Origin: Candidatus Moraniibacteriota bacterium
Lineage (GTDB): Bacteria; Patescibacteriota; Minisyncoccia; Moranbacterales; UBA2206
Assembly (NCBI GenBank): GCA_049303795.1
Contig: JBAQNM010000004.1
Coordinates: forward strand, 75,690-139,689
Length of the DNA: 64,000 nt
Direction: 5' to 3'
Part shown: piece after piece, positions 6,372-52,874 of the stretch
Layout of the letters: the number at the start of each line of letters is the position of its first letter
Numbering within the stretch: the first letter of the stretch is position 1
Made by a program: the position numbers and the translations under genes
The notes under the pieces: generated by a model
Database searches by the model: none
Seen by the model: only the letters and a program-made list of their open reading frames with translations
Told to the model about the DNA's origin: nothing

Positions 6372-6372
6372 A

Positions 6373-27310: not shown

Positions 27311-27321
27311 GAAAATTAATC

Positions 27322-34879: not shown

Positions 34880-35578
34880 CTAAGAATTCAATTTCTCATA
34901 GTACATAGCAACATCACTAATCCATTTTCGCACTCCAGCTGGATCATGACCGGCACAACTCGATCCGCATTTCCAAATAATCATTTCTTCCGGTGTATCA
35001 ATTTCTTTTTCAATTAAATCTCGAATTCTTTCTCCAACAACAGAAATAGCTTGCTCGGGAGAATCAAAACAGCTATAACCAGAATCAGTTTGATTATACG
35101 TTCCGCGATAACCCCAATAGTTGTAGCAATCCTTATTGGCCTTTTGCGGAGCATGCTTGCCCCAATTACTTTCTTTTTTGGCAATCGCAATTAAAAACGA
35201 GGCTGTTTTTGAGTCACACTTAGAAATATAAGGCAACATTTCCTCAATTGGATGACTAACTACTAAATCATAATATTTACCATTTTTTATTTCCTCATCT
35301 TTCTTTGTTTCTTTTTCCTTTTGTTTATTTTTTCTTTTTTCCATTTCAATTATTTCTAGTCTTTTCTTTATTGGCTCTAAAGGATCAAACTCTCCGAAAT
35401 CGATTGGGTTGTATTTTTCTAAGGTCACCTTGGCTTCCGGCGCTTCTGCCAGAGAAATATTATTGATGCTAAAATGAAATAAAAAAAACAGCCCCACAAT
35501 AATTATGGGCGTTATTTTGGCTAATATATTCAGTTTTTTGCCTATTCTCCCCTTCAAACTCGGCAGATCTTCGCTCAT
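34880..35578 (-). CDS. Membrane-anchored lysozyme-like/transglycosylase-like protein, paralogue 1
   Basis: TM anchor, K/E-rich linker, then IAIAKKESNWGKH...DCYNYWGYRG...CFDSPEQAI...IDTPEEMIIWKCGSSC...VRKWISDV. Collinear with 44301-45350. The AIAxxES motif resembles the SLT catalytic region. Confidence 0.4.
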   Translation of the reverse strand: MSEDLPSLKGRIGKKLNILAKITPIIIVGLFFLFHFSINNISLAEAPEAKVTLEKYNPIDFGEFDPLEPIKKRLEIIEMEKRKNKQKEKETKKDEEIKNGKYYDLVVSHPIEEMLPYISKCDSKTASFLIAIAKKESNWGKHAPQKANKDCYNYWGYRGTYNQTDSGYSCFDSPEQAISVVGERIRDLIEKEIDTPEEMIIWKCGSSCAGHDPAGVRKWISDVAMYYEKLNS

Positions 35579-35721
35579 ATTAGATTATTCCCCTGTTTCC
35601 CCTTTTCTCCCCAATACTGGTTAAAAAGTAACTTTGTAATTCTAGCAAATTATGGGGATGGAGTCAACCATGATTATGCACAAGTAACTATGAACTTAAA
35701 TATTCACCTTATTGATTTCCA

Positions 35722-35757
35722 TTAAAAAAGGCGTTGCGACATTCATCGCAACGCCTT
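35722..35757 (-). terminator. Rho-independent terminator at the left edge of the GC-rich island
   Basis: 10 bp stem ggcgttgcga (35730-35739) paired with tcgcaacgcc (35746-35755). A-tract 35724-35729 is a U-tract on the minus strand. Confidence 0.6.
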
Positions 35758-35794
35758 CGCGTTATCCTAAGCGATCATATTTAGCTCCTCCAAG

Positions 35795-37402
35795 CTAATG
35801 ACCACTGTCCTCTTTTTTATTGTTGATGATCTGATCAACCCAGTGTTTTGGATTTTCTGGATTAACCCAGTATACCTTGTCGTTATCAGCGTTCATAATC
35901 GCAATCTCCGGCTTTCCTCCAGTGCCGAATCGCTCCGGATTATCTTTGTTCAGAGTTACAACCGTTGAAAGCCAAAAGAAAGTAGCTTTTCCATCGATAA
36001 TCTTGATGTATGGCCTATTTTCAACGGCCCGGACTATTTGCCAAGTGTACGCCTTACGGCTGTCTTGAATCTTCTGCGCGACAGCCCCGACCCCGGTATA
36101 ATTCTCCCCATGCATATAATGTTTATACACATAAATAGGACCGATGCCATCTCCCGGATAAAGCATGCTGGCATTTAACCCCTTGGCCGGTTCATAATAC
36201 GGCTCGAAGGAAAAATAACCATACAGCTTTGACTTTTCCGGTTCGTTGGGAAAATTGAAGTAAGTCGTAAATGGCTGTTCATTGGAATCCTCTGATAGAT
36301 CTGAAACCACCACATCACCCATATGATAGAAAGGTGCCGGTCCCCAGAAGCCATTGTCAAACTTGAAACTATCAGCATCGAACCTTTCAACTATTGCTGG
36401 TACGATGCTTTGCCCCTTCAGAAAAGGATGTTTGAAAATGTCTTCCGGCGGAATCCATTTTCCGATACCAAAAACCCAGAGTTTCAGTTTTTGCAAAAAA
36501 CTCAATTGGCTATTATCTGGGATAATTAAAACTCCGCCCTTTTCCGGCCAGGGAAAAATTATTCCATTCCAATGTATAAGCTTGACTACTTCAACCCACC
36601 TCCCTTCGTCATCTTTTGTTAAGAACATTTCAGCCGGCTGATAATTTAAAAAACGCCATAAGCCGAATGTTTTAATCGTGTTGGTAATCACATTTTTTCC
36701 GAGTATCATATGCTGTCCAGTCTCAAAAGCAACCTTAACTTTCGCTTTTCCTTCAAAGCTTGGATAGGCTTCTTCACCGGAAACATTAAACACGGCATAG
36801 GACCTGCTAATGAGCTGGTTAATACCTGGGGGAGGCTCAATGAGCATCGTCCAGTTGTAATCATCCTTACCCACTCGCACAAAAAATGGATCACTGATTT
36901 GAAAACTTTCGTTTGTCTTCGTCTCAGCTTGAGTGAGCATTGATTGGCGTGGCTGGACTCTTTCATGACCAGTCAGCGGCATCTCCTTAAGTTCAACAAT
37001 ATCCAAAGTCTTGTACCGAAAATACAGTGACAAGTATTCATGGACATCGAATCCCTTATAAGCAGAATAGGCATAAAGGCCAGCAATTAAAACCAGCACT
37101 ACCGAAAAACCCAGCCGGGTAAACTTACGGCGAAAAACCAGTCTGAACATCAGGTAGAGCACCATACACAGGAGGCCGATAGTCAGCAATATCCAGAGGT
37201 GATTTCTCGCCCAGATGAGATATGGTTGCCACAGACCCCTAAGACCAAAGATGAACATCAGACTAATTACCACTGAGACCAGAAACGATCTCAAATGGTT
37301 TTTTAATTGGTTTTTGATTCCGCGGTTGATGTTGTGCCATAAATAATATATTTGGCCGTGTTGCTCATTTACCGCGGAAATCTTTTGTTTCGTTTTTTCC
37401 AT
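35795..37402 (-). CDS. Island protein 1: large membrane protein (4 TM + ~400 aa extracytoplasmic aromatic-rich domain)
   Basis: Start assigned to the ATG at 37402, which has a perfect SD GAGGAGG (revcomp of 37408-37416); the longer ORF-track version overlaps the upstream gene. GC is about 45%. Confidence 0.55.
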   Translation of the reverse strand: MEKTKQKISAVNEQHGQIYYLWHNINRGIKNQLKNHLRSFLVSVVISLMFIFGLRGLWQPYLIWARNHLWILLTIGLLCMVLYLMFRLVFRRKFTRLGFSVVLVLIAGLYAYSAYKGFDVHEYLSLYFRYKTLDIVELKEMPLTGHERVQPRQSMLTQAETKTNESFQISDPFFVRVGKDDYNWTMLIEPPPGINQLISRSYAVFNVSGEEAYPSFEGKAKVKVAFETGQHMILGKNVITNTIKTFGLWRFLNYQPAEMFLTKDDEGRWVEVVKLIHWNGIIFPWPEKGGVLIIPDNSQLSFLQKLKLWVFGIGKWIPPEDIFKHPFLKGQSIVPAIVERFDADSFKFDNGFWGPAPFYHMGDVVVSDLSEDSNEQPFTTYFNFPNEPEKSKLYGYFSFEPYYEPAKGLNASMLYPGDGIGPIYVYKHYMHGENYTGVGAVAQKIQDSRKAYTWQIVRAVENRPYIKIIDGKATFFWLSTVVTLNKDNPERFGTGGKPEIAIMNADNDKVYWVNPENPKHWVDQIINNKKEDSGH

Positions 37403-37412
37403 AATTGCCTCC

Positions 37413-38018
37413 TCAGTGCTTTGCTGTATATTTACGAATGAGTTCGTGAGGATCAACGGGTTTTTCTTCGACCACTTCAGGTCTCGCTTCAGCCGTTTCT
37501 GCCACAGACGTTTCAGGCTTTTCCGCTTTTTCTTCTGCTGAATGATTTTTTGCAGGTTTCCACTTTTTGAAAAGCGAGCGGAAACCATCAATCAATTCCT
37601 TGATCCAGTCTATCATGCTGAACTTTACTCGGCCCTCAGAAACATCATCAGCCCATTCGAAAAGATCAGATCTTTTCGTCCAGCGCTGATATGCCCACGG
37701 TGCCAGAGAAAATCCAAGCATAATCATCAGGATTCCGACCGGCAGTCCGAGAAGTTCAAACAGCAGATTGACTGGTGCGTATTTCAAGGAAATTACAGCC
37801 TGCATAATATAAATGATGAAGGCTGCGAGAATCTTCTTGTTGATCGGCCGTTTGTAGATGAAGCCGTCGGCCTTGTCCTCAGAAATTTGATTTTCCTCGG
37901 AATGGCACAGGTTGTGCCACCAGCGGCAAAGTTTTGAACCATACTTCCAGTCTGCAATAAAGGTCAGAATGCCAACCTTAAAAAGTACAATCGCCATAAA
38001 AATTCCATATGCTGTCAT
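37413..38018 (-). CDS. Island protein 2: small membrane protein (201 aa) with acidic C-terminal tail
   Basis: Three or four TM helices. C-terminal EEKAEKPETSVAETAEARPEVVEEKP. Separated from the downstream gene by a 10 bp gap. Confidence 0.5.
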   Translation of the reverse strand: MTAYGIFMAIVLFKVGILTFIADWKYGSKLCRWWHNLCHSEENQISEDKADGFIYKRPINKKILAAFIIYIMQAVISLKYAPVNLLFELLGLPVGILMIMLGFSLAPWAYQRWTKRSDLFEWADDVSEGRVKFSMIDWIKELIDGFRSLFKKWKPAKNHSAEEKAEKPETSVAETAEARPEVVEEKPVDPHELIRKYTAKH

Positions 38019-38051
38019 GTTCTGTCTCCCTGTGTGATATGTTTACATTGT

Positions 38052-39338
38052 TTAATCGTTTTTGACTTGTGGTTGCGGTTCATAAGCTTCCTTAATTACG
38101 TTGACCGCCCAGTCTTTCTTGCTTTCCAACCAGTTTGGGTAATCTTGGAAAAATCGCTTTTTGTTGTAAGCATAAAGCTGAACAACATCCAGCGGATTCA
38201 GCTCCGAAAGAAGCTGCCAAATAATCGCTTGCACTGTTGGTTTTAATTTTGCTTTTGGATGAATCAGCAATCGGCGTAGTTCCGGTGGCAAGTCTTTAAT
38301 AGCCCTTTTAGGCTCCTTGTCAAACTGGATCATAAACCGTTCTATCTGAAAAAATTCCGGCGGCAAGCCGTCTTTGAGACCGGCTGCCAGACTTTTTTTC
38401 TGATTTGGATTGAGTGATCCGAAGAATATCGTCGGACACTTTCGAAGTTGCGCCTCAATCAAAAGACATTCCCATATGCGCTCAAGAACCTCCGGACTTT
38501 TATGATAAAAACTCTCACTAACATCCAGTAATCCTTTTTCCTCCATGACCGATAAAAGATTTTCATCTGCCAGGGAATACGCTCCGGGAACACTACCCTG
38601 CAATTCTCTGAATTGAGCATCATTCTCGAGGATCAGCAGTCCATCTTGACTGCACTTATCATCCCGAAAAACATATGCTCCGCCAAAAGCCGCCGTCCAG
38701 AAACTGCAGATTCCGTCAACCGGAATGCTTGGTATAATCACTGATCTGCTCCTGAGATCGCCGAATGACTTGGCACTTTCGATTATTTTTCTGCGCAAGT
38801 TTTCGTCGAACCAGGAATCATCTTTTCGCATAAACTTGTTAACCAGAGTACGCTGATCCTGGGCGCCTTTAATGAGCCCACTTGATGCTGAAGTCCGAAT
38901 AATAACGGAATCAACAAAAAGCAGATCACCCGGATTAAGATAATGCGACAGGTTTTGGTCAATATCCAGAATCACTGCCGTCTCTTCTGTAATGTCCGCC
39001 ACTTGCCGGCTAAACCGTTGGAATACTTCTTCCATAAGCGACCGGCTAAATGAATAATACGGGTAATAGACAGTTTTTCCGTTTTGTTTTGGTGTTAAAA
39101 TAATATGAAATTGGTTCGCTCCACCGTGCGCCAGATAGAACATCTCGTTCTTTTCCTTGGCAATTTCAGGACTCCAACCGGAGCCGTCAATGCTAAACTC
39201 TGTAAGCATGGTTGGTGACAAACCAATTTCCCTAAGACACTCATTATAGCGATTTATGAGCGTCCCTGAATGAATCTGTATAAGATGCCGACCATACAAG
39301 CCAGCATCGATCAATTTCTGTAGTGCCTCCATGGGCAA
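38052..39338 (-). CDS. Island protein 3: hypothetical soluble protein (428 aa)
   Basis: Long ORF with GC-rich codon usage. Shares short motifs with 41254-42432 (e.g. DIDQNL / GIDQNL). Confidence 0.5.
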   Translation of the reverse strand: MPMEALQKLIDAGLYGRHLIQIHSGTLINRYNECLREIGLSPTMLTEFSIDGSGWSPEIAKEKNEMFYLAHGGANQFHIILTPKQNGKTVYYPYYSFSRSLMEEVFQRFSRQVADITEETAVILDIDQNLSHYLNPGDLLFVDSVIIRTSASSGLIKGAQDQRTLVNKFMRKDDSWFDENLRRKIIESAKSFGDLRSRSVIIPSIPVDGICSFWTAAFGGAYVFRDDKCSQDGLLILENDAQFRELQGSVPGAYSLADENLLSVMEEKGLLDVSESFYHKSPEVLERIWECLLIEAQLRKCPTIFFGSLNPNQKKSLAAGLKDGLPPEFFQIERFMIQFDKEPKRAIKDLPPELRRLLIHPKAKLKPTVQAIIWQLLSELNPLDVVQLYAYNKKRFFQDYPNWLESKKDWAVNVIKEAYEPQPQVKND

Positions 39339-39344
39339 CCTCCA

Positions 39345-41324
39345 TTAGCCATTTTTTTGGTTAAGAAAACGTTTCTTGGCCTCTTCCTGCCGATTAATTT
39401 CATCCACAATCGCTTGAATTCTACGCTCTTCATCAGCCGAAAGTATCCTTGTCATAGCGTCCAAGTATCGGAAAGATTCCTCGAGCCTGAGCTGGGAGAA
39501 CGAAAGTCCCTTCATATTACCCTTCATCATTTCAATCAGGATATTTTTCTTTGTTGCATAATCCTGACGGAAAAACTTTTCCGGATGTTCCCACCAGTCT
39601 TTCTCCAGGTCAAAATCCATAATCCTGGTACTGACTGCTTCTTGGATATTTCGCACATCCCGAGAAGAGAATAATGGAAATACCTTTTTGACTTCAAGAT
39701 GTAGTATCGCAAAGAAGCGATGCTCTGTCGGATCCGCTTCCCGAAGCACTTTTTCATAAATTTCGTTTATCCGCTGATCGGTAGGTTTTTCATATTTACC
39801 ACAAACCGATAAGAGGTTTGGTCCGAGTGCTTGGGCAGTCTTATACTCATACCCTTCCGGATCTTTCATATTAATAAACTTCGGATCCATCTTGGCGTAT
39901 TTTACCCACCAGAGGTAATCCTGATCCAGAAAGTCTTCCAAAGTTTTGGCACCATCGATTATCGCCCGAACTTTAATTCGGGAAAGGACGGCTTTGTCAA
40001 GTTGTTCCGGTATATTGGTGTATAGCTCAATCACTGAGTTGCCGTGATTGATAGCCGTAGCACCTTCTGTGTTGGTCAAAAATGCGCCGATTACTTCCCG
40101 CACTCCAGCAGATACGCCTGGTCTTGTTCTGTCCTCAAAATTGTTTTCGGCATCATCGGCCGGTGCGTAAATAATCCTATTCGGATCACGCATCGGATGC
40201 ATCCAATCCAACATCCTTTCTTTCGACCCTCCCTGAAAAGTTGAAACAACATTTTCAGGCATCGGCCAGAAAAGAAAAGGATAGCCTAATTGTTCGCAAC
40301 GGTCTTTGAGCATAGTCGCAATCGCTGCGATCAACATGCTTTTTCCTGTTCCAGGGATTCCATGCCCCAGCCGAACCGTTGAGAATCCCCTCAGTTCCTG
40401 CATAGGATTTTTCTTGGCAGTAAAATCATAACATAATAATCTTTCCACCAATCGATGAGCGTGGTGCTTAGCATCATGATTTCCCACGATTTCGGTAAGC
40501 TCCATTCGATTAAATTCTACTGTCGCACTACTCGAAATAACCTGAGAATCAAAACCATTAATATTAAATTCAGTTCCTTCCAGTTTATAATGGTTATTCT
40601 CAAAAATTTCCTTCCGATTAAGAGAGCCCAAGCGCATCTTAATGTCCTCAATGACTGCCTGAAAATAAAGTAGCGTCATTTTGACAAAAGCCACCTCCGG
40701 TTTAGTTTTGATTGTTTCCAGAAGATCAGTTGCATAGGCCGTGTAATAGAAAACCATACACGTCCCGGCTATTTGCGGAAGGGTAAAATCAGTTTCCGGT
40801 ATTCCATCAATCTGGTGGTTTACCGCCGAAACTTCTTCCGTACGGTATTTGGACAATTTCCAAACTACGTAATAGGCCGTGGCAAACATATAGACCGCCG
40901 AGGCTGTTTCCTTTATTTCATTAAATTCGGTTTTTTGCTTATCTGAAAGGATCTTTCTCTTATTCAGGGCTATGAGATTTTCCATGCCACTGTGACGATA
41001 ATATTCCCAGAACAGATGCATGCCGATCCGCAAACCCTGGCGGACGGTTGTCAGCACGTGAAGTACTGCTTCGTCCATCAGGAATGGATCGTTGTTGAAC
41101 TTTGGCGCGAGCTTCATCAGGGACAACTCTTTTTCGATCCCAGCCTCGGCTGCTTCACTCCACTGCTTGGCGCCAGGAACGTTCATAGTTAATCTTGCTT
41201 TTTTTGGCTTCCACAGCACTTTTGCAAGAAGGGCGGTAGCGTCCGTGGTGAATCTATTCAAATCTTGTTCTTTTATCGGCAGACAAGCTGCAATGGTTTT
41301 TTCCTGCATAGATATTCTCCTCAT
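39345..41324 (-). CDS. Island protein 4: AAA+ family ATPase (659 aa)
   Basis: Walker A LGHGIPGTGKSMLIAAIA, preceded by IVGNHDAKHHAHRL, with the following region arranged as in AAA proteins. The 5' end overlaps the 3' end of the upstream gene by ~70 nt. Confidence 0.55.
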   Translation of the reverse strand: MRRISMQEKTIAACLPIKEQDLNRFTTDATALLAKVLWKPKKARLTMNVPGAKQWSEAAEAGIEKELSLMKLAPKFNNDPFLMDEAVLHVLTTVRQGLRIGMHLFWEYYRHSGMENLIALNKRKILSDKQKTEFNEIKETASAVYMFATAYYVVWKLSKYRTEEVSAVNHQIDGIPETDFTLPQIAGTCMVFYYTAYATDLLETIKTKPEVAFVKMTLLYFQAVIEDIKMRLGSLNRKEIFENNHYKLEGTEFNINGFDSQVISSSATVEFNRMELTEIVGNHDAKHHAHRLVERLLCYDFTAKKNPMQELRGFSTVRLGHGIPGTGKSMLIAAIATMLKDRCEQLGYPFLFWPMPENVVSTFQGGSKERMLDWMHPMRDPNRIIYAPADDAENNFEDRTRPGVSAGVREVIGAFLTNTEGATAINHGNSVIELYTNIPEQLDKAVLSRIKVRAIIDGAKTLEDFLDQDYLWWVKYAKMDPKFINMKDPEGYEYKTAQALGPNLLSVCGKYEKPTDQRINEIYEKVLREADPTEHRFFAILHLEVKKVFPLFSSRDVRNIQEAVSTRIMDFDLEKDWWEHPEKFFRQDYATKKNILIEMMKGNMKGLSFSQLRLEESFRYLDAMTRILSADEERRIQAIVDEINRQEEAKKRFLNQKNG

Positions 41325-42432
41325 TGTAGGTATATTTTATTGTGTCTTTAAAGGCAGCGAAGTCACCATTCTTATCCATGAGTTGTCGTAAATAATGTGG
41401 CAACAGCATGTAATGGTGAATTTGCGAGGCCTTCTTTTCATAGCATTCCAGATCTGTTTCCGGGATATAAAATATTTCCCGAAGTTGGCCCAGAGAAAAC
41501 GGGCTCTTCGATCTTTTTTGTTCTTGCGAAATAACAATCTCGTCGCAGAACGTGAAGATAAAATCGTCAGGGCTCTCTGCGTTTTGAACCAACAGGTTGT
41601 GAAGCGCATAAGGATCTCTTGAAAACGATTTTGTACAAATCGGTCCCAACATAATCCGTTTGATTGATTTCGGGTGAATGTCCTTCAAGTTTTGATCAAT
41701 TCCCATTGCCATTATGCCGATAGGCGGAACCCGAGAACCTTCAGCCTGGACAATTTCCAGAAACTTATCGTAATTGGGTCCTTTTTCTGTCAATGAGTTA
41801 GCCTCCTGATCCTGGTCGAACGCCATAATACAAATGTTGGGTTTATTGCTGGCAAAATCATAGCCAGCCCAACTGAAAATGTAATGGCGAAATTCTTCAC
41901 TTTCTCCTGTCAGAATTAAATTCCCGGGAATGAAAGTAAGGAAGATACTGGGATCAAGTTTTTCGAAAAAATATCTCTGACCAAGTTGCGCCAGAATTTC
42001 CGGAGATTCTTCCTGCTGCTTAAACATGAAATCAAGCAAACCACTTTTCAAATTAACAAGAGATGGCAGTTCATTTAATTTTTGTTCACGCATTCTGAGG
42101 TCCACCTCCAGAGCACCAATTTCCTGATAACTGGGAAACCCAGAATCAGAAAGATCAACGATTAGCGTATGCTCGGGATCGTAGGTATATTTCCGTCGAA
42201 GCGCTCGGATAGTTCCGAGCAATTTTTCCAGAAAACCTGTAACGATTCCCGGTTCGTAATTTTTTCGTCCCGATTCCACTGCCTGGCATTGAAAAACGGC
42301 CAAGAGCATTTGAAAAATGGAATATAATTGATTGAAATACTGGGCATATTCATCCCTGTTTTTAAGCTTTTCCAGTTTAAACTGGGATAATCCTTCATTC
42401 CAGACATCTTGACCTGTGCCATTTTTATTCAT
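41254..42432 (-). CDS. Island protein 5: hypothetical protein (392 aa)
   Basis: Long ORF. Weak similarity to island protein 3. Confidence 0.5.
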   Translation of the reverse strand: MNKNGTGQDVWNEGLSQFKLEKLKNRDEYAQYFNQLYSIFQMLLAVFQCQAVESGRKNYEPGIVTGFLEKLLGTIRALRRKYTYDPEHTLIVDLSDSGFPSYQEIGALEVDLRMREQKLNELPSLVNLKSGLLDFMFKQQEESPEILAQLGQRYFFEKLDPSIFLTFIPGNLILTGESEEFRHYIFSWAGYDFASNKPNICIMAFDQDQEANSLTEKGPNYDKFLEIVQAEGSRVPPIGIMAMGIDQNLKDIHPKSIKRIMLGPICTKSFSRDPYALHNLLVQNAESPDDFIFTFCDEIVISQEQKRSKSPFSLGQLREIFYIPETDLECYEKKASQIHHYMLLPHYLRQLMDKNGDFAAFKDTIKYTYNEENIYAGKNHCSLSADKRTRFE

Positions 42433-42511
42433 GTCAGTTCATCCTTTCTCTGTAAAAATGGGCAGGCTTTTTGGGCCTGCCCGGTTTTGGTTGATTTGTT
42501 GAAGCCGGTTG

Positions 42512-43870
42512 CTAATTAGCGCCCGGTTGATTATCCGGTTGATCTTCGACGTAACGAAAATACGATGTCGAAAGTGGATCAATAAGATATTTCTCCTTAA
42601 ACAACTGCCTGGCCTTGTCTTCCCGAAGGCGGATTTGTTGGATTGCCTCTGCTTGAGCAGCTGCGGCCTTAATAACCTTGGCTACCCGATCAGGCTGATT
42701 TTCCACTTTTTGCATCCGGACATTATCGCTCGCAGCGCCAGCACTGGCCATATATTCTACATTTGATTGGTCGATGGCTGCGCCCATATCGTCCAGTTGC
42801 TTGGCAATATCCTGATCAGACATCGCCTTCATCGCTTCCAGCCTGGACTTAAACGTGACCACCCTTTCCTGGGTGTCCGAACGCAGTGCCGTAATCCACA
42901 TTATGTGGTTATCCCGCAACTTCATCTGGGTACGTTCGTGCACCTGGAGCTCTTCGGCGAATTTTTCTTTCGATTGAAAGAGAATCAGTGCCGTGTTTCT
43001 GCGGCCCCTGATATCTTCCACCTCCGACCGAAGGTTTGAAACTTTTGTGTCCTGAGCGGCGTACTCAGGACTTCCATTAAGAAAAGTGCCGAACATCTCT
43101 TCTTCTGTTTGCAGTTCGGCTTCTTTCTCCTGGAGTTGCTGATCCAGGGCCTCTAATGCCCTGGCCGCCTCTTCTTTGATCCGGAATGCTTCTGCTTTTC
43201 GGGTTTGAACGGCCACCAGTTGTTTTTCAATGGCTTCTTTTCTTTTCTCCATGATTCCAATGGTCTGTTCGACCTTATATTGGAAATCTTGGAGAGATTC
43301 TTCCATATTTTTGGTTTGCAGTCGACGACGAGCCCGCCGTTTGGCTTCAGCTTTGGCATCTTCAATACCTTGCTTGGCATTTGTGATTGCCTGATTCGCC
43401 TGGGCAATAGCCTTTTCGCGTCGGTGCAAAAAATTCCACTTCTGGCCAGCTTCTTCGAGTTTAACATTGGCACTTCCGAGTTTGGCTTCCGCGTCGGTGA
43501 CCAGCTTCAATTCCTCGGCATTGGGTCTCATGAGAACTGCATATTCAGCTCCCATCGATTCCAAAATTGCGTTGAGCCCGAAGACCGCATTGGCCAGATC
43601 CGCTTCTTCTTCCTTGATCGATTCCCGTAAAGAAGCAAAATCAGCCTTAAGTACTTTCATTCGGATGTCACGCTCGTGCTTATCCTTAATCTGCTCAGCT
43701 TGTTCGAACTTCGCTTTCAGTTCGTCAAGCTTGGTGTCGAGGTTTCTTTGCGCCGGTTTTTCCAGGGTTTGGATCGATGCCTCGGTATCTTTGAGAAGAT
43801 TCTGAAGCATATCCATTGATACGCCTGCTACTCCGCCTTGTCCTGTGGTCGTTCCTACATAATCATTCAT
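42512..43870 (-). CDS. Island protein 6: long coiled-coil protein (~452 aa), possibly TelA/PspA-like
   Basis: Start assigned to the ATG at 43870 with SD AAAAGGAGGAAG (revcomp of 43874-43886). Sequence is dominated by heptad-like E/K/A/Q/L repeats. The family guess is tentative. Confidence 0.5.
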   Translation of the reverse strand: MNDYVGTTTGQGGVAGVSMDMLQNLLKDTEASIQTLEKPAQRNLDTKLDELKAKFEQAEQIKDKHERDIRMKVLKADFASLRESIKEEEADLANAVFGLNAILESMGAEYAVLMRPNAEELKLVTDAEAKLGSANVKLEEAGQKWNFLHRREKAIAQANQAITNAKQGIEDAKAEAKRRARRRLQTKNMEESLQDFQYKVEQTIGIMEKRKEAIEKQLVAVQTRKAEAFRIKEEAARALEALDQQLQEKEAELQTEEEMFGTFLNGSPEYAAQDTKVSNLRSEVEDIRGRRNTALILFQSKEKFAEELQVHERTQMKLRDNHIMWITALRSDTQERVVTFKSRLEAMKAMSDQDIAKQLDDMGAAIDQSNVEYMASAGAASDNVRMQKVENQPDRVAKVIKAAAAQAEAIQQIRLREDKARQLFKEKYLIDPLSTSYFRYVEDQPDNQPGAN

Positions 43871-44136
43871 CTGACTTCCTCCTTTTAGGTTATACTTCAA
43901 TAATGCACCATACATACAACTAATAATACGGGTACTCTTGCTAATAAAAACTCCTTTTATGTTTATATTATTATTCAATAGTAACTATTAGATTGTCAAT
44001 GAGCTGTAAAAAATCAGCTATTCTTCCAATTTTTCTTGGAAAAATTTATACTGATTTTTACGCTTCAATAAAGGCAATTAATAAGCCTCTGGCTAAAGCC
44101 TAAAAACCAATCACTGGATTGCTTAATATACACCAA

Positions 44137-44160
44137 AAGCTATTGATTTGTCAATAGCTT
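44137..44160. promoter_or_regulatory. Perfect 10 bp inverted repeat AAGCTATTGA-TTTG-TCAATAGCTT upstream of the island operon
   Basis: Seen directly. A related half-site GATTGTCAATGAGCT occurs at 43993-44007; its revcomp contains TTGACA. Confidence 0.4.
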
Positions 44161-44260
44161 GCACAGCTAACACACCAAAGACACCTTTGGCATGATATCA
44201 AGGATAAAATTTGCTAGTTGATAATCAAACAACCAGTAAAAATTCAATATTTGGCCAAAC

Positions 44261-44288
44261 AAAAAAACGAAGTGAGTCTCGTTTTTTT
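44261..44288. terminator. Weak bidirectional terminator-like hairpin at the right edge of the island
   Basis: A-tract, then aaaacga - agtgagtc - tcgtttt, then a T-tract. The stem is AU-rich. Confidence 0.3.
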
Positions 44289-44300
44289 ACTTGTAGGTAT

Positions 44301-45350
44301 TTAATTTTTCGCTTCAAACTGCTTGAAATAATAATCCACATCATCTATCCATTTTTGCACCGCTTTTGGATTATCCCAGGAACAATCATAACCGCACTTC
44401 CAAGGCAAAACCATTTCCTGTGGTGTATCAATTTTTTCATTATAAACTAAAGAGCCAATTCTTTTGGATGCGCTATCAACGGCATCCTTAACACTATCAA
44501 AACAAGTATGCCCACCTGTTCCCATACGCTCTCTTTTTTTGCGAAATCCCCAATAATTATAACAATCTTCTCCATCCAAAACCGGAACGTGCACACCCCA
44601 AGAACTTTCCTTTTTAGCAATCGCTACCAGAAATATCGCCACGACTCTATCTTGCTTGGCAATTTCAGAAACCATTTGTTCAATTGGATAACCCTTAACC
44701 ATTTCTCTTAATTTTTGTTCGAATTCAGCCGTTTCTTTATTTGACAATTCAGCTAAAAGCTTTGCAGTATATTCATTTATTTCTTTTTGGACAGCTTCTT
44801 CATCAATCGCCTGCGCACCTAAAACCATTTCTGCTGTTTTATTTTCTGCTAATTGCTGGGTCTCATGAGCACTGGCTCCTTGACCAAGATAACGATAGAT
44901 CATCGTCATCAAAAACATCCCAAAAATTAGCGAGGTGACAAGCGAGATATTCCACATTCGAACCATTCCAACTCCGTGAGTATATCCACTAAGTGCATCT
45001 TTTATATATTGCAACAAACTAGAATAACGCTCTTTCAAATCAAAATAACTTGGATTTTCTTTTCTCCAATAAATCCGTTTTCTGGCTTTGCGAGATAAAA
45101 CACAATCCACATTTCCCGTGAAAGATAATCTTTTTTCTCCAGCACGCATTCTCCGCAGCTCTGATTGAGTGAAATATAACTTTGAATCGCTGGTTGTGAA
45201 GTTATTTATTTTTCCATATTTATTAGAAAACAAAACCGAAGAATTTTTGTTCTTCAGAATAAATTGAGTCAAATTATAATCAAATTCTCTCAGTTTTTTT
45301 CGCTCGCGAGAGATGCCATCAAAAGAAAAGTTTTTTTGTATTTTTTGCAT
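44301..45350 (-). CDS. Membrane-anchored lysozyme-like/transglycosylase-like protein, paralogue 2
   Basis: VAIAKKESSWGVH...DCYNYWGFRK...CFDSVKDAV...IDTPQEMVLPWKCGYDC...VQKWIDDV, collinear with 34880-35578. Confidence 0.4.
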   Translation of the reverse strand: MQKIQKNFSFDGISRERKKLREFDYNLTQFILKNKNSSVLFSNKYGKINNFTTSDSKLYFTQSELRRMRAGEKRLSFTGNVDCVLSRKARKRIYWRKENPSYFDLKERYSSLLQYIKDALSGYTHGVGMVRMWNISLVTSLIFGMFLMTMIYRYLGQGASAHETQQLAENKTAEMVLGAQAIDEEAVQKEINEYTAKLLAELSNKETAEFEQKLREMVKGYPIEQMVSEIAKQDRVVAIFLVAIAKKESSWGVHVPVLDGEDCYNYWGFRKKRERMGTGGHTCFDSVKDAVDSASKRIGSLVYNEKIDTPQEMVLPWKCGYDCSWDNPKAVQKWIDDVDYYFKQFEAKN

Positions 45351-45376
45351 TGGTTATCTTATGCTTATCTGCTTTT

Positions 45377-46225
45377 TTATCTTTTTACATTATACCATTT
45401 TTTTATCTTTTTCCAAAACATTATCCCCAGCCCACTGAAAAACATAATTACACTGAAAATTTGTCCCAAGGTTAAGCCAAAAAAAAGAAAACCTATTTGT
45501 GAATCGGGCTCCCGATAAAATTCACCGAAAAAGCGTGCAGTGGCATAAGCACATAGATAGATTGCGGCAAGCTTTCCTTGAAAAACCTTACTATTTCTAA
45601 TTGTCCAAAGGAAAATAAATACTACAATGCCTTCAAGAAACGCTTCATACAATTGCGATGGGTGACGCAGAAGATGCAATTCATCATCTGGAAAATACAT
45701 TCCCCACCATTTTTCAGTTACCCGACCATACAACTCTCCGTTTAGAAAATTACCAAGGCGACCAAAAAAATACCCTGCGGGAATTGCAGGGACAGAAAAA
45801 TCAATCAAATCCCAAAATTTAAGTTTATTTCTTCGAGTGAAGATTATGGCAAAAATTATTGCTCCAATCAATCCTCCGTGATAACTCATTCCGTAAATAC
45901 CAACCAAATTTCCTGTTGATAAATCAAATGGAGATATGATGGCTAGCGGGTTAGAAATGTAGTAAAAAAAATTATAGAAAAAAACATAACCCAATCTGGC
46001 TCCAACCACAACTCCAATAAAACAGAAAATTAAAAAGTCAAACAACTGACTCTTAGACAATTTTCCCTCACCCAATGCCAATCTTTTTTTTAATAAAAAA
46101 TACACAACTAAAAAAGCCACTAGATACATCATGGCATACCAACCAAAAGAAAAAGGACCAATCCATACAATCTCTGGGTTTATTTGAAAAGGAATATACT
46201 GATAGAATTCAATAAATTTACTCAT
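45377..46225 (-). CDS. lgt: Prolipoprotein diacylglyceryl transferase
   Basis: Polytopic membrane protein with YGMSYHGGLIGAII...FGRLGNFLNGELYGR signature. Confidence 0.85.
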   Translation of the reverse strand: MSKFIEFYQYIPFQINPEIVWIGPFSFGWYAMMYLVAFLVVYFLLKKRLALGEGKLSKSQLFDFLIFCFIGVVVGARLGYVFFYNFFYYISNPLAIISPFDLSTGNLVGIYGMSYHGGLIGAIIFAIIFTRRNKLKFWDLIDFSVPAIPAGYFFGRLGNFLNGELYGRVTEKWWGMYFPDDELHLLRHPSQLYEAFLEGIVVFIFLWTIRNSKVFQGKLAAIYLCAYATARFFGEFYREPDSQIGFLFFGLTLGQIFSVIMFFSGLGIMFWKKIKKWYNVKR

Positions 46226-46278
46226 TTACTTTTTTTGAAATATGTCAGACAATCATTTTGTATCCTTTTTTTCAATTT

Positions 46279-46893
46279 CTATTCAAAGCAACAATCGACT
46301 GCTTTACGCACAAGTTCACCCAGTTTTCCCATAAAATTACTATTTCCGGATTTATCAAGTTTATTTTCTGAAACGATGGATGCTGAATTATGAGCATTAT
46401 TACCGGAAGAATGATTAACTTCTTTTTTTATTTGATCATGTTTATTCAGGGCTTCCACATCAATCTCTTTTATATCTCCAGTATTAATCACTTTCATATT
46501 AATTCCCCAAAAAAGAGAATAGAGATCATAGGCTTTTTGAAAAAGCTCATGCGCTTTTTCTTTCCTACCCATGCCTTGTTGTTTAGTTCCCACTTCCATC
46601 AGTCGCATTGAAGCTGCCAAAAGATGCTTGGAAATACACCATTCCTCTCCTTCCGGATTCTTGACTATTTCGCGAAGCAAATCACCACGCATCTTACGCA
46701 CTTCTTGCAACAGATCAAAATAGCCGGGCTTTTGCAATTTCGCCCCGGTAAAAAAGAAATGCTCTTCGATGCTGACCAAATTCATAATGGCAATAGACAG
46801 ATCCTGATCAGATGAAAGATCAAGTTTATCTTGCTTTTTCATATGATCCACTTTTTCAATCAACTCGTTAAGATTTTTAATTTTATCCTCCAT
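46279..46893 (-). CDS. Hypothetical protein (204 aa)
   Basis: Long ORF, no recognisable motif, ends in CCFE. Confidence 0.4.
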   Translation of the reverse strand: MEDKIKNLNELIEKVDHMKKQDKLDLSSDQDLSIAIMNLVSIEEHFFFTGAKLQKPGYFDLLQEVRKMRGDLLREIVKNPEGEEWCISKHLLAASMRLMEVGTKQQGMGRKEKAHELFQKAYDLYSLFWGINMKVINTGDIKEIDVEALNKHDQIKKEVNHSSGNNAHNSASIVSENKLDKSGNSNFMGKLGELVRKAVDCCFE

Positions 46894-46899
46894 ATATTT

Positions 46900-47421
46900 T
46901 TAATTTAGAGTTAAATAATAAAATAGTCCGCTAGCTATAAATAATATTACCAATGGGATAATAACTTTTTGAAAAGGAAAGTAGACTTTTCCGCCATTTC
47001 TTTGTTTAAGTTTAAAACTAAGAATGCCACCGAAAAAAAATAAAATACTGCCAATAATCATGCCCAAAACTAATTTATCGATACCCCAAAAACTGTGCAT
47101 CGGCTGTCCAATTAAGTTCTTCCAATATAATGGAGCAACGGTGAGAAAATAAAAAGAACCAAAAATAATTGTTCTTTTTCCAAAAAAATTAATTTTTTTC
47201 TTAGCAAGATATTCTATAGTCCACATCGATAAGGAAACAAGCAAAGCACCAATCCAGAGACCGGTGACAGTATCATCAATACCCAGATAATTTGAAAGTT
47301 CAAGCCCCGCTCCAACTGCAACGACGCAAACTGGACAAAAGGCCTGCGCTGAAAAAATAGGCATCAAGCTTAAGCCAGTGAGTAAGAAAAGGAGTTTTTT
47401 TCTAAAAAAATTATTGAACAT
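46900..47421 (-). CDS. Membrane protein with CPVC motif after first TM helix (possible redox partner; not a canonical four-Cys DsbB)
   Basis: Four hydrophobic helices. FCPVCVV lies at the predicted outer face. Only one Cys pair is present. Confidence 0.35.
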   Translation of the reverse strand: MFNNFFRKKLLFLLTGLSLMPIFSAQAFCPVCVVAVGAGLELSNYLGIDDTVTGLWIGALLVSLSMWTIEYLAKKKINFFGKRTIIFGSFYFLTVAPLYWKNLIGQPMHSFWGIDKLVLGMIIGSILFFFGGILSFKLKQRNGGKVYFPFQKVIIPLVILFIASGLFYYLTLN

Positions 47422-47803
47422 TTATTTTATCTTTAAAAAATTGGATTATTTCATCTTGACCTAAATAACATTTTCCGTCTGTCCAAAGAAATGGCACCTT
47501 TCCATTTTTTTCTTTTTCCCAATTACAAGACTTCTGTTTATCTACCATTAAATTAGCATTGGCGCTATCGCTACCAACCTCCCGCTGAGAAAAAGAAATT
47601 TTGTCTTTTATATTATTATCTGCAATGTATTTTTCCACTATCTTACAATGAGAACATTCATTGCTGTAAAACAAGATGATTGCTGAATCATCTGTTGTTG
47701 AAGCGCAACCACTAAAAATAGAAGCGGCTAGAAACAAAAAACTACCTAAAATAATTTTCTTCATAAAAAAATAAAAATAACTTTTTAAACTTGCAAAATA
47801 CAA
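47411..47803 (-). CDS. Thioredoxin-like lipoprotein with CxxC (CSHC) active site
   Basis: Lipobox FSGC after the signal peptide (alternative start at MKKIIL, 47761). ILFYSNECSHCKIVEKYIADNNI is a thioredoxin/glutaredoxin-like CxxC context. Confidence 0.55.
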   Translation of the reverse strand: MYFASLKSYFYFFMKKIILGSFLFLAASIFSGCASTTDDSAIILFYSNECSHCKIVEKYIADNNIKDKISFSQREVGSDSANANLMVDKQKSCNWEKEKNGKVPFLWTDGKCYLGQDEIIQFFKDKINVQ

Positions 47804-47904
47804 CTAATTAGAATTATACCAATAAAACTATTATACAACAAGTTTGGCACAAAAAAAACAGCCCCGATTGCTCAGGACTGCTTTTTTAAGTTTCTAAAGA
47901 TAGA

Positions 47905-48225
47905 TTAGTATCTTTTTCCACCAAAACCACCGTCAGATCCACCCGGTTTTCGGAAACCACCAGTTCTTGGTCTTTCCTCCATTGGGCGAGCTTCGTTAAC
48001 AGTCAAAGTTCTTCCTTCGAACTCTTTTCCGTCAAACATAGCGATAGCTTTTTGTGCTTCTTCATCAGAAGACATTTCCACGAAACCAAAACCTTTAGAA
48101 CGTCCAGACATTTTATCATTGATGATAATTGCTGTTTGAACTGCTCCAGCTTGAGAGAAATAATCCTTCAAACCGTCTTGGGTTGTGCTGTAGGATAAAC
48201 CTCCTACGTACAATTTTTGTGCCAT
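47905..48225 (-). CDS. RRM-type RNA-binding protein with Gly-rich tail
   Basis: RNP2 LYVGGLSY and RNP1 KGFGFVEM. C-terminal RGG/GGF-rich tail. Confidence 0.8.
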   Translation of the reverse strand: MAQKLYVGGLSYSTTQDGLKDYFSQAGAVQTAIIINDKMSGRSKGFGFVEMSSDEEAQKAIAMFDGKEFEGRTLTVNEARPMEERPRTGGFRKPGGSDGGFGGKRY

Positions 48226-48499
48226 TTTTTTGCCTTATATACTTGATTACGCATTGCAAGCCGACCTTCTCACTTAGCTTACTTCTCTGAAAACTGACGC
48301 TTTCAGTCTTTTTCCTTAGATTCACATATAAGGCAAAACCTGCTGAGAAAACTTACAATAGACACAGTATACACTATAATGAGAAAAAAATCAAGTGGCT
48401 GGGCAAGCCATACTCAAATCCAAAAAAGTTTAAAAAAAGCGCCGGTTAAAAATTTAACCTGGCGCTAATGTTCATAGGAGGGAATTTTTGTCATATACG

Positions 48500-49108
48500 T
48501 TACTCTGAGTTTGAATTTTTCATCTGAGAACATTCGGAACAAGAAAAATAACAAACTCCGTGATCCTCGGAATAATCAATACATTCTTTTATAAACTGAC
48601 AAAAGAAGTTTCTGTGTTTTTCCGCCTCATTCTCTTGAAGCGATCTACGCATAGGAATAATGGTTATTATTATTTCCGGATATCCAATAGGACTAAAATG
48701 CAAATTCTTGCTCTCATCAACTTTTCTTTTTCTAACCTTAACGCCTCTTGGCCGATTAGTCATTGGTTTTTTAATTTCCATCGGCGGAGTAGTTGCGCCT
48801 TGAGAGTTAACTTTTTCAATCACATTATTTCCCGCTTGATGTTCCATCGCTTCTTTAACCACAACTGGAGAAGGACTTGAATCATCAGATTCTTTTATCG
48901 TTCCTTGAGTGCAAGATCCTGTGTATAAGTTTGACATGAAATTTCTCACATTCATTCTTCCAACCAGTTCTCCCATTCCCTTGGGAAAACTTTTTTCTGC
49001 CCATTCCTGCAAACTCAAATTACTTTTGTTAAAATCCTTCCTCTCCTTAATCGAGAGGCAATCCGCTAAGCCTTGAACTTGATTTAGGACGTTCTTGTCG
49101 TCGACCAT
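48500..49108 (-). CDS. Hypothetical protein (202 aa) with C-terminal Cys cluster
   Basis: Long ORF. C-terminal CQFIKECIDYSEDHGVCYFSCSECSQ could bind zinc. Confidence 0.35.
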   Translation of the reverse strand: MVDDKNVLNQVQGLADCLSIKERKDFNKSNLSLQEWAEKSFPKGMGELVGRMNVRNFMSNLYTGSCTQGTIKESDDSSPSPVVVKEAMEHQAGNNVIEKVNSQGATTPPMEIKKPMTNRPRGVKVRKRKVDESKNLHFSPIGYPEIIITIIPMRRSLQENEAEKHRNFFCQFIKECIDYSEDHGVCYFSCSECSQMKNSNSE

Positions 49109-49220
49109 TTGTCACCCCCGCTTCTTTTTTATGATTAATTTCAGTTATGAATTATTTTAGGTACCAACTTATACATAACAAAAAACTACTAAATAGTCAA
49201 AGAAATTTATTTAACTTATT

Positions 49221-50819: not shown

Positions 50820-50839
50820 TGGTGTTTTTAAATTAACCT

Positions 50840-51832
50840 TTAAAATCCATTTATTCTTACTGATGTTCGTGCGCCACATCGAGTAATTTCAAAATTAGGA
50901 TCTTTTCTTTCAAGTTTTACCATCTTATTGCCCAGAATAGATCTGCTATATAAAATATAAGCATCATCAACAAGATATACGCCTAATTGGAATGAACCTT
51001 GTTGGCAATCAATAACTTGATCGTTTTTTTCCATATAACACAAAAATTCAACTATCCATTCTTCTGGAGTTTGACCAGATTCTCCTTGATATTGCTTTTC
51101 AGTTTGAATTAATTTTAGATATTTTTTTGGAGCATCATGTATTTCTAATTGTTTTCGACCATTAATTATTTTGCCTTTACCTTCTTCAGGCATATTCATA
51201 TCACCCTCTCTAAAAATAATTAAATAACCGGGAATTGATTTTTGAGCGTTAATAAGTTGTTTTTTTGTTTTCCCTTGATGATTTTCATAAGAGAAACCAT
51301 TAACATCATAAACTAACTCGTTTTTCTCATCAGCGTTAGCATACATTTCATTAATATAAACTGGCTCATTTATGTCCAAATCAAAAGGCATCAGTTCCTC
51401 AATTTTACTTTCTTTATTCCTTTTAACATAAAATAACTTTCCTTCTTTATGATGTTTGAGCAATTGCCTTTTGAGTGTTTCGATGAGCTTACTTAACGGC
51501 ATCGCAAACGGTACAATCTCAAGCTCTGTAAATCCTTGTTTCATCTTAGTTTCAAACATTTCTTTGTTTTTTAAGATGGCAGTTCTAATTTCATTCATCG
51601 TGGGCAGATCATAAGTTTGACCATCAATACCCAGAATTCTCATTTTGACATCCGTTCCGTCTATTTGAGTTTCATTGTTTTCATCAATCCAAGTTCTTGG
51701 CATGGGAGAAATTAATCCTAATTGATTGAGAATCTTAGCTTTATCTTCATACTGATTTTTCAGTTCTAAAGACAGCCATCTTTCTAGGGTGGATGGTTCT
51801 TGAGATTCTGGGTTGGGGAATTCGTGGGACAT
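50840..51832 (-). CDS. Paralogous family protein A (330 aa), unknown function
   Basis: N-terminal ~125 aa about 80% identical to 51861-52853 and 56025-57020 (STLERWLSLELKNQYE.KAKILNQLG.ISPMPRTWIDENNETQIDGTDVKMRI.GIDGQTYDLP). The C-terminal half is diverged; the C-terminus is GARTSVRINGF. Confidence 0.55.
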   Translation of the reverse strand: MSHEFPNPESQEPSTLERWLSLELKNQYEDKAKILNQLGLISPMPRTWIDENNETQIDGTDVKMRILGIDGQTYDLPTMNEIRTAILKNKEMFETKMKQGFTELEIVPFAMPLSKLIETLKRQLLKHHKEGKLFYVKRNKESKIEELMPFDLDINEPVYINEMYANADEKNELVYDVNGFSYENHQGKTKKQLINAQKSIPGYLIIFREGDMNMPEEGKGKIINGRKQLEIHDAPKKYLKLIQTEKQYQGESGQTPEEWIVEFLCYMEKNDQVIDCQQGSFQLGVYLVDDAYILYSRSILGNKMVKLERKDPNFEITRCGARTSVRINGF

Positions 51833-51860
51833 AGTTATTTTTTAAATATAAAAACTAGAT

Positions 51861-52853: not shown

Positions 52854-52874
52854 AGAATTTTATCGCTAATTATT

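Follow-up and report, generated by a model that had tools for sequence, protein, structure and literature searches.

The 64,000-nucleotide stretch analyzed here, referred to below as the window, comprises positions 75,690 to 139,689 of the forward strand of contig JBAQNM010000004.1 from the Candidatus Moraniibacteriota bacterium assembly GCA_049303795.1. Between 35.8 and 43.9 kb the window carries an island of six minus-strand genes, designated g6 to g1 from the first gene of the operon to the last, that is about 44% GC, against about 35% in the DNA nearby and about 0.36 for the full 64-kb window. The rise in GC that an initial annotation of the sequence had placed over six consecutive minus-strand genes was borne out by a composition scan, in which the eight consecutive 1-kb windows from 36001 to 44000 had GC values of 0.427-0.455 and the adjoining windows on each side had values of 0.33-0.37. 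At a resolution of 150 bp, the edges of the GC rise coincide with the 3' end of g1 (~35,800) and the start codon of g6 (~43,870). The GC excess is located at synonymous positions: the GC content at third codon positions (GC3) is 0.44-0.49 (0.47) in the six island genes versus 0.30 +/- 0.06 in the 47 other open reading frames (ORFs) of the window, a comparison that includes the 102-aa ORF at 1750-2058, the status of which is doubtful. That ORF and two others outside the island (21335-22114 and 62596-63759) also have GC3 values of 0.45-0.48, and it is therefore the unbroken 8-kb run that sets the island apart. The island deviates in tetranucleotide composition as well as in sliding-window GC, the two checks that the initial annotation had named, with the region from 36 to 44 kb being an outlier at an L1 distance of 0.269 and every other 8-kb window lying at 0.10-0.20.

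In order to define the island genes, their starts were revised using the position of Shine-Dalgarno (SD) sequences, the alignment of homologues and public gene calls on identical contigs, and the resulting coordinates are listed together with those of the other features in Table 1. All six genes are preceded by an SD sequence, namely AAGGAGG for g6, AAGGA for g5, GAGGAG for g4, GGAGGT for g3, GGGAG for g2 and GAGGAGG for g1. Conversely, an SD match of at least 5 nt was found for none of 27 host genes (e.g. those in 2883-34846 and 44301-61565), the leaders of which are A/T-rich (ATAAAATAAT-like). Translation in the host thus seems, from the leaders, to be initiated without SD pairing, and the strong canonical SD sequences that had been described for the island are indeed unlike anything in the host set. 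The gap of 10 bp between g2 and g1 was confirmed, and the overlap of the 3' end of g5 with the start of g4, previously given as ~70 nt, is either 56 nt with the start adopted here or 71 nt if g4 starts at 41324. The 10-bp-stem terminator that had been noted is present, read from the sequence at 35755-35724; it lies 40 nt past the g1 stop codon and closes the operon. The perfect palindrome and the TTGACA element upstream of g6 are likewise in place, with the palindrome overlapping the -35 box of the TTGACA-18-TATATT site.

Table 1. Genes and predicted signals of the island and the two host genes that flank it.
Feature	Position	Strand	Description
p232	34880-35578	-	host gene flanking the insertion site downstream; C-terminal domain in common with p349 (repeat families D6, D14)
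Intrinsic terminator	35724-35755	-	10-bp perfect stem GGCGTTGCGA/TCGCAACGCC, 6-nt loop TGAATG, T6 tail; read from the sequence
g1	35795-37402	-	535-aa membrane protein; start MEKTKQ after GAGGAGG, in agreement with a public 535-aa call
g2	37413-38018	-	201-aa membrane protein
g3	38052-39332	-	DUF6638 protein, 426 aa
g4	39345-41309	-	classical AAA ATPase, 654 aa
g5	41254-42432	-	392 aa, no recognised family
Stem-loop	42460-42482	-	GGGCAGGC-CCAAAAA-GCCUGCCC with AUUUUU behind it, located in the g6-g5 spacer of 79 nt; GC-rich; not in the initial annotation
g6	42512-43870	-	452-aa coiled-coil protein, first gene of the operon; start MNDYVG after AAGGAGG, in agreement with a public 452-aa call
Promoter-like site	43970-43999	-	TTGACA-18-AATAAT, ~100 nt upstream of g6; 11/12 consensus matches
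Promoter-like site	44125-44160	-	TTGACA-18-TATATT, consensus match; -35 box inside the palindrome
Perfect palindrome	44160-44137	-	AAGCTATTGA-CAAA-TCAATAGCTT, 10+4+10; candidate operator
p349	44301-45350	-	host gene flanking the insertion site upstream; paralogue of p232

The two host genes on either side of the island, p349 and p232, are tandem paralogues with a common C-terminal domain of ~130 aa (AIAKKES.WG...CYNYWG...WKCG) that is without a Pfam match, and p349 with p232, or p349 alone, adjoins lgt in many related Patescibacteria contigs. For a comparison with the empty site, p349 was searched against metagenome contigs, which yielded 57 related loci onto which the proteins of the window were mapped. 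The synteny f204 ... lgt - p349 - p232 - EamA-like - h337 - x388 is kept in relatives. The genes p349 and p232 are adjacent, ~250-500 bp apart, and without the cassette in L117, L120, L104, L106, L099 and others. At L096 p349 abuts the EamA-like gene, and at L093, the closest relative (69% identity), a 420-aa ORF that is MurA-like by eye comes after p349. None of g1-g6 was found in any of the 57 related p349 loci. Given that the flanks are joined in relatives without the cassette, the island is an insertion; the comparison of its ends with relatives lacking it had been named as a check in the initial annotation. An identical g5 protein was found on six contigs, and the four loci examined, from four samples or assemblies, have the same insertion, which indicates that it is fixed in this population. 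SRR28062879 and SRR28062869 are among the samples with the island.

At other loci, the GC content of the cassette follows that of its flanks, with values for cassette versus flank of 0.556 versus 0.565 in Bdellovibrionota (L001), 0.297 versus 0.299 in a Polaribacter-like genome (L059), 0.619 versus 0.617 in Sinorhizobium (L086) and 0.360 versus 0.337 in Paceibacterota (L042). The high GC of the island therefore comes from its donor and is not intrinsic to the genes. The nearest homologues belong to other lineages or phyla and lie in DNA of 45-56% GC; the closest relative of g4 is 70% identical and is on a contig of 50% GC, and the next is ~54% identical. The g4 copies of other Patescibacteria are no closer than those of other phyla (47% for Buchananbacteria and 49% for a Patescibacteria metagenome-assembled genome), which points to independent acquisitions. 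Based on its deviating synonymous-site composition and a site that is empty in relatives, the region is a genomic island, and the cassette it holds is imported from another phylum into the Candidatus Moraniibacteriota genome. Horizontal acquisition had been put forward in the initial annotation, and supporting it are the GC3 and tetranucleotide values, the foreign SD sequences, the empty sites, the homologues in other phyla and the flank-matched GC elsewhere. We are highly confident that the island is an acquired copy of a conserved, undescribed cassette that was inserted between two tandem paralogous host genes.

The traits of a mobile element were looked for as well. Among the six genes Pfam identified no recombinase (integrase or transposase), and att-like direct repeats were rejected because those at the island ends do not go beyond repeats due to the paralogous p349 and p232. 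There is no adjacent tRNA gene; a tmRNA gene lies 8.5 kb off and is not the integration site. That gene (26887-27312) scores 154 bits in Rfam and has the tag peptide ANLLTKARTAFANAFTVNFATALA. A phage origin was discarded given 0 tblastn matches for g4 in 50,697 phage records, as was carriage on plasmids, given that in PLSDB it was megareplicons or mislabelled chromosomes that matched DUF6638 and not mobile plasmids. A composition that has not been ameliorated and SD signals that are foreign to the host would also be expected of an inert passenger, recently acquired and neither expressed nor used by its Moraniibacteriota host. We consider such a state to be highly unlikely in view of the fact that the six ORFs are all intact and as long as their full-length homologues, that the same insertion with an identical g5 is present on the six contigs (four loci examined), and that near-consensus promoter-like sites lie upstream.

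In order to determine how widely the cassette occurs, a genome scan was carried out with an alignment of DUF6638, which gave 80 loci onto which the six proteins were then mapped by tblastn. The order g6-g5-g4-g3-(g2)-g1 was found in nearly all of the 80 loci that were sufficiently long, and the six-gene synteny that the initial annotation had suggested searching for in other genomes thus recurs across phyla. The six-gene order is present in Bacteroidota, including Flavobacteriales, Chitinophagales and Saprospiraceae (among the cultured Flavobacteriales are Psychroserpens, Gelatiniphilus, Aureisphaera, Lacinutrix, Maribacter and Aureitalea), and also in Bdellovibrionota and Paceibacterota, and all six genes were identified in Buchananbacteria (L151) and in L150, a genome of 54-59% GC. 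The four soluble genes alone were found in Trueperaceae (Deinococcota), Desulfonema magnum (Desulfobacterota) and Vibrio-labelled 0.9-Mb replicons. In Sinorhizobium meliloti the four-gene core is accompanied by a different membrane protein, DUF2333, with two transmembrane (TM) helices, and the homology of this cassette was established by hhalign for the coiled-coil gene (g6, 97.7%) and for g5 (99.8%). Since the core occurs elsewhere alone or with DUF2333, the unit is best described as a four-gene soluble core (g6-g5-g4-g3) plus an exchangeable membrane module. At least seven bacterial phyla have this conserved and apparently self-contained cassette. For g4 there are >1,600 relatives in a protein collection clustered at 90% identity, and 45-55% identity is kept across phyla.

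The arrangement of the genes within the cassette is also conserved at the level of its junctions. The g5/g4 and g4/g3 junctions have an overlap or a spacing of 0-12 nt in most loci, which is typical of translational coupling and fixed stoichiometry. Between g6 and g5, the stem-loop of the island has a minimum free energy of -20.8 kcal/mol (z -3.1) and is predicted to be terminator- or attenuator-like. A strong hairpin occupies the corresponding place in the cassettes of Bdellovibrionota, Desulfonema, L150, Buchananbacteria and Trueperaceae too, bringing the total to six cassettes from five phyla, and the sequences of these hairpins are unrelated to one another. A stem-loop behind the first gene is the usual route by which a structural subunit is produced in excess over its downstream partners. 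With g6 as the first gene, the hairpin behind it suggests that g6 may be the abundant component.

Several individual loci had further genes in or next to the cassette. A NUDIX hydrolase gene (~195 aa) lies between g4 and g3 in 11 Flavobacteriaceae loci (L043, L051, L055, L057-L059, L064, L074, L076, L080 and L084), and a 23S-rRNA-IVP / bAvd-like four-helix gene is within or beside the Flavobacteriaceae cassette at 9 loci, being inside it in 7. At L086, which is S. meliloti Ak57 (CP090106.1, 2666923-2675787), an endonuclease-domain gene and an ISRm16 transposase are located between the ATPase and DUF6638 genes and the two-TM DUF2333 protein comes after the core; the 3.7-Mb record is labelled pSymB and has chromosomal markers (trpE, tdk and cho genes). 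The Vibrio vulnificus FORC_036 'plasmid' NZ_CP015514.1 (L087) carries a four-gene core adjoining mfd, and this record and three of V. parahaemolyticus have the DUF6638 matches on plasmid-labelled replicons of 0.88-0.94 Mb. A 1028-aa g5-g4 ORF in a long-read Flavobacteriales genome bin (L033, 6921-10007) is either a fusion or an indel error and was not counted. In Candidatus Buchananbacteria (L151, 1-4747 upstream of the genes) the cassette lies ~1.7 kb downstream of hrcA-grpE-dnaK-dnaJ with two small genes between, a single case that may be coincidence. In S. meliloti, a DNA-binding screen with ChvI reported a bound fragment inside SMc02733 (PMC3687685), a locus tag close to the expected place of the S. 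meliloti cassette that was not used as evidence here; if SMc02733 were a cassette gene, the binding would be a hint of envelope-stress regulation.

No conserved neighbour gene outside the cassette is common across lineages, and the flanks that are conserved within sub-lineages consist of housekeeping genes. These surroundings bear on whether the cassette might serve in anti-phage or abortive-infection defence, with a cytoplasmic sensor made up of the AAA protein and its partners that triggers membrane disruption by g1/g2 or by a helical g6. Such a role would fit the transfer between phyla, the patchy occurrence, the insertion into a reduced genome and the mix of ATPase and membrane proteins, which recalls some defence systems, and a few g6 homologues have very weak matches to pore-forming toxin families (T3SSipB in 3/38 and HBL in 1/38). 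However, there is no PADLOC match for the six proteins and there are no phage homologues of g4, and at ~70 loci the genes immediately next to the cassette have housekeeping roles (ABC-F, GT2, amidase, acyl-CoA dehydrogenase and transporters). The PADLOC matches among 113 immediate neighbours, a sample that is not a genome-wide enrichment test, were limited to 6 generic ABC-ATPase cross-matches and singletons. In addition, the conservation of the flanks within Flavobacteriaceae sub-lineages indicates vertical inheritance, the 45-55% identity of g4 across phyla is unlike that of fast-turnover immune genes, and no nuclease, NADase or protease domain is present. On balance, a function in defence appears quite improbable to us.

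The protein that had been annotated as an AAA+ ATPase with the motif GIPGTGKS is confirmed as a classical AAA protein, with a revised length of 654 aa. It consists of a single AAA domain and an N-terminal domain of ~290 aa (285 aa) that is unannotated. The Pfam AAA family (PF00004) matched g4 at 32 bits versus a cut-off of 21, and the motifs identified were Walker A (GIPGTGKS), a pore loop (STFQGG), Walker B (IIYAPADDAEN), sensor-1 (TN), an arginine-finger region (LSRIKVR) and a lid (FSSRDVRNI). In 71 homologues of g4 the elements GIPGTGKS, S-T-F-Q-G-G, T-N, D.A..SR...R and FSSRD.RNI are kept. A profile of the AAA domain matched best to Cdc48/p97, AFG2/SPATA5, VAT and NVL, and then to NSF, Vps4, Rpt4 and TRIP13, with E-values from 1e-9 to 4e-6. 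The domain is alignable to both D1 and D2 of Cdc48, and the Phe of its pore loop aligns with the pore-loop residues of Cdc48. The Walker A motif, sensor-1 Asn, arginine fingers and aromatic pore loop 1 of g4 place it in the classical AAA clade, and g4 has all the hallmarks of a substrate-threading member of that clade.

The first gene product, g6, is in agreement with the earlier description of a coiled-coil protein of ~450 aa, being 452 aa in length with heptad periodicity over residues 1-315. It is alpha-helical, 56% of its residues are A, E, K, L, Q or R, and stretches free of Pro and Gly extend up to 73 residues. The best-conserved part of the protein is a non-heptad C-terminal region at ~295-400 (FQSKE.F, L.SDT.ER), and a motif [FM]D[LM]L is conserved at the N-terminus. 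Searching of a g6 profile against the PDB returned generic coiled coils only.

The g3 protein matched DUF6638 (PF20343) over residues 18-420 at 149 bits (E 2e-43; the gathering score is 27 bits), and its homologues in all cassettes match the same family. A search with the DUF6638 profile retrieved, out of 1.84 billion, 586 representatives at 50% identity, each of which is a stand-alone protein of ~400-480 aa. Confident AlphaFold models were available for both g3 and g5. That of g3 has an alpha/beta N-terminal domain (1-260) and a helical C-terminal domain, and that of g5 has a helical hairpin and helices at 28-158 followed by an alpha/beta domain with very long strands at 167-370. Foldseek found no solved structural relative for either model in the PDB, and profiles of g3 and g5 had no match among PDB sequences; the C-terminal domain of g5 has a non-significant Foldseek likeness to the cup-shaped SMP, NTF2 and SnoaL folds, with a probability of at most 0.16. 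The weak kinship between g3 and g5 proposed in the initial annotation did not hold: hhalign gave 1% with 4+4 sequences and 0.1% with 33+36 sequences and the architectures of the two models differ, which rules the pair out as paralogues.

Both g3 and g5 have many invariant polar residues (Asp, Glu, His, Lys, Arg, Ser and Asn), and one could envisage from these that g3 and/or g5 are novel-fold enzymes of a small-molecule or modification pathway, the product of which is organised or exported by the ATPase, the coiled-coil protein and the membrane proteins. The invariant charged and polar positions, the NUDIX hydrolase gene inside the cassette at 11 Flavobacteriaceae loci and the weak likeness of g5 to ligand-binding folds would all be compatible with such a pathway. 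Conversely, neither protein has a significant structural or sequence match to any enzyme, no transporter or biosynthetic genes are linked to the cassette across lineages, and a classical AAA protein with a threading pore loop is atypical of metabolic pathways. We therefore regard an enzymatic pathway as very doubtful.

The membrane topology of g1 and g2 was predicted with a simple hydropathy scan. According to this prediction, g1 has a short basic cytoplasmic N-terminus, TM helices at 39-57, 71-89 and 94-112, and a domain of ~420 aa outside the cell that has many invariant Trp, Gly and Pro residues. Of the earlier description of g1 as a four-TM protein with a large external domain, the external domain stands as a prediction and the helix count does not, there being three helices in g1 and in five homologues. 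The protein is conserved in at least 58 loci and had no Pfam match and no match among PDB sequences. A relationship of g1 with DUF2333 was rejected, as hhalign gave 0.7% and no g1 member matches DUF2333 in Pfam. The g2 protein has three predicted TM helices and a charged C-terminal tail of ~90 aa, which is probably cytoplasmic by the positive-inside rule. The g2 position is occupied elsewhere by a fast-evolving ORF of ~170-220 aa with two or three TM helices, which was found in at least 46 loci.

We speculate that the cassette encodes a machine in which ATP drives the remodelling of a coiled-coil scaffold at the cytoplasmic membrane, a reading that we favour tentatively while giving it somewhat less than an even chance. 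According to this model, g6 would be made in excess, with the hairpin behind its gene either attenuating transcription or stabilising the upstream message, and would assemble along the cytoplasmic membrane, on its inner face, into a scaffold of helical or coiled-coil type. The cytoplasmic tail of g2 and the large external domain of g1 would anchor this scaffold in the membrane and connect it with the envelope, a membrane role that DUF2333 may fill in Rhizobiaceae and that elsewhere may be taken by unlinked partners or by none. A hexamer of g4 would thread its substrate via the aromatic pore loop, with the result that the scaffold, or a client bound to it, is disassembled or remodelled, and g5 and g3, being translationally coupled on either side of g4, would act as adaptors or regulators in fixed stoichiometry. 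Such a machine would work by the logic of ESCRT-III/Vps4, NSF/SNARE or Cdc48 and its adaptors, using parts unrelated to theirs. The more specific proposal that the cassette is analogous in function, but not homologous, to ESCRT-III/Vps4 or NSF/SNARE, in which an AAA protein and two partners of novel fold cycle a coiled-coil scaffold, with exchangeable membrane modules and mobility across at least seven phyla, is in our estimate possible but on the unlikely side.

A number of points weigh against scaffold remodelling. There is no experiment or homology that links any part of the cassette to membrane remodelling, and the core lacks a membrane gene in several phyla, which implies that action at the membrane may be non-essential. 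None of the 38 g6 family members matches PspA, Snf7 or TelA in Pfam, which led us to reject these identities for g6, and at the sequence level the ESCRT-III superfamily signature (PF03357/PF04012) was likewise absent from the 38. In g4 the Walker B motif is an invariant D-D-A-E rather than D-E, with the second Asp aligning with the catalytic Glu of Cdc48; the canonical hhhhDE with its catalytic glutamate was thus not found in the g4 family, and ATP turnover may be slow or regulatory. The N-terminal domain of g4, searched as a 33-sequence profile, had no PDB chain at E<0.4 and no Pfam match, and neither an MIT nor another substrate-binding domain was detected in it at the level of sequence only. 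The g3 and g5 proteins could be enzymes instead of adaptors, and the promoter, operator and attenuator were predicted only from sequence patterns or folding energy.

The same components could alternatively form a machine for the assembly, extraction or quality control of envelope proteins, in which g4 together with g5 and g3 would handle a client, possibly g1 or a protein passed to the external domain of g1, and g6 would be a stator or tether. Relatives of the AAA domain such as Cdc48/p97, AFG2 and Msp1-like proteins extract or unfold proteins from membranes and complexes, and the conserved pore loop of g4, the large conserved external domain of g1 and the exchange of the membrane partner for DUF2333 in Sinorhizobium are consistent with a machine of this type. 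We nevertheless consider it rather unlikely, as the core has no linked membrane protein in Trueperaceae, Desulfonema and the Vibrio-labelled replicons, the cassette is not linked to any component of a secretion system, signal-peptide cargo or peptidase, and the hairpin behind g6 suggests that g6 is abundant.

The scaffold-remodelling machine that we prefer can be compared with several characterized systems. It is like ESCRT-III/Vps4 and PspA/Vipp1 (IM30) in combining a putative helical polymer-former with a classical-clade AAA protein that has a threading pore loop, at the membrane, and the likeness to ESCRT-III/Vps4 extends to a structural subunit that is encoded first and probably over-expressed and to the presence of Vps4 among the significant matches of the AAA profile. 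The differences are that g6 (452 aa) is without a PspA_IM30 or Snf7 signature, that the N-terminal domain of g4 is without a detectable MIT domain, and that the two extra obligatory partners of the cassette, g3 and g5, have no counterpart there. Cdc48/p97/VAT and AFG2/SPATA5 are the best sequence matches of the AAA domain (E ~1e-9), key motifs align and g4 is likewise partner-dependent; however, g4 has one AAA domain rather than a tandem D1-D2, its N-terminal domain is unrelated by sequence, its Walker B is D-D and its partners are unrelated to UBX, Ufd1 and Npl4. With NSF/SNAP/SNARE the resemblance is in logic only, that of an AAA protein disassembling membrane-anchored coiled coils via adaptors, and although NSF is among the AAA-profile matches, no SNARE, SNAP or NSF-N homology was detected in the cassette. 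The Bacteroides aerotolerance (Bat)/MoxR operon is similar in being a conserved Bacteroidota operon with an AAA+ ATPase and membrane proteins, but MoxR belongs to the AAA_3 clade and has DUF58, VWA and TPR partners, and no such Pfam family occurs in the six proteins. Zorya and Kiwa, which are membrane-linked defence systems, are comparable in being multi-gene, horizontally transferred and composed of membrane proteins and an ATPase, whereas the cassette is without a PADLOC match and, as judged from its immediate neighbours, is not associated with defence islands.

The designation of the cassette as undescribed, first made in the initial annotation, is supported by searches of databases and literature. 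Of the six proteins, 0/6 matched PADLOC-DB 2.0 at E<=0.1, PHROGs and NCBIfam gave nothing meaningful for them, and Pfam annotation was limited to AAA (g4) and DUF6638 (g3); to these results can be added the two models without a PDB fold match. A description of the cassette was not found in the full-text literature searched, which covered DUF6638, DUF2333, locus tags of S. meliloti and Vps4-like/PspA. A 2025 review reported that a Vps4-like ATPase is apparently absent from bacterial ESCRT-III systems (PMC7619361), and part of a gene-neighbourhood survey for the PSP (phage-shock-protein) system describes AAA contexts other than this cassette (PMC11237479). The contrary outcome that the initial annotation had allowed for, in which relatives have the genes as a known housekeeping operon of equally high GC, was checked and did not apply. 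The cassette would therefore seem to be a system of a new kind, built on a known ATPase superfamily, where 'new' reflects the negative outcome of the searches and the function is one that we infer.

A few other features of the window were recorded. Three gene pairs (4125-6816, 13497-16032 and 16241-18005) each encode a large protein (748, 694 and 410 aa, respectively) and then a small protein of ~145 aa. GC at the second codon position is 0.52-0.65 for the large proteins, suggesting low complexity rich in Gly, Ala, Pro, Ser and Thr, and the pairs are without a Pfam family. The gene at 57102-61565 encodes a 1487-aa protein with an SNF2-type helicase and a methyltransferase domain.

That a host with a minimal genome has taken up and kept 8 kb of foreign DNA suggests that the benefit under selection is strong. 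Where a classical AAA unfoldase has its own set of partners, it usually marks a major machine, as in the proteasome, ESCRT, NSF and Cdc48, and a new bacterial AAA unfoldase machine would be a real addition to them, particularly as 4/6 of the proteins of the cassette are outside any described family. The hosts of the cassette are tractable or ecologically important, and include marine Flavobacteriaceae, Sinorhizobium meliloti, Desulfonema, cable bacteria, Bdellovibrionota and Patescibacteria. If scaffold remodelling is indeed its function, the cassette would bear on ATP-driven remodelling in bacteria comparable to that by ESCRT in archaea and eukaryotes.

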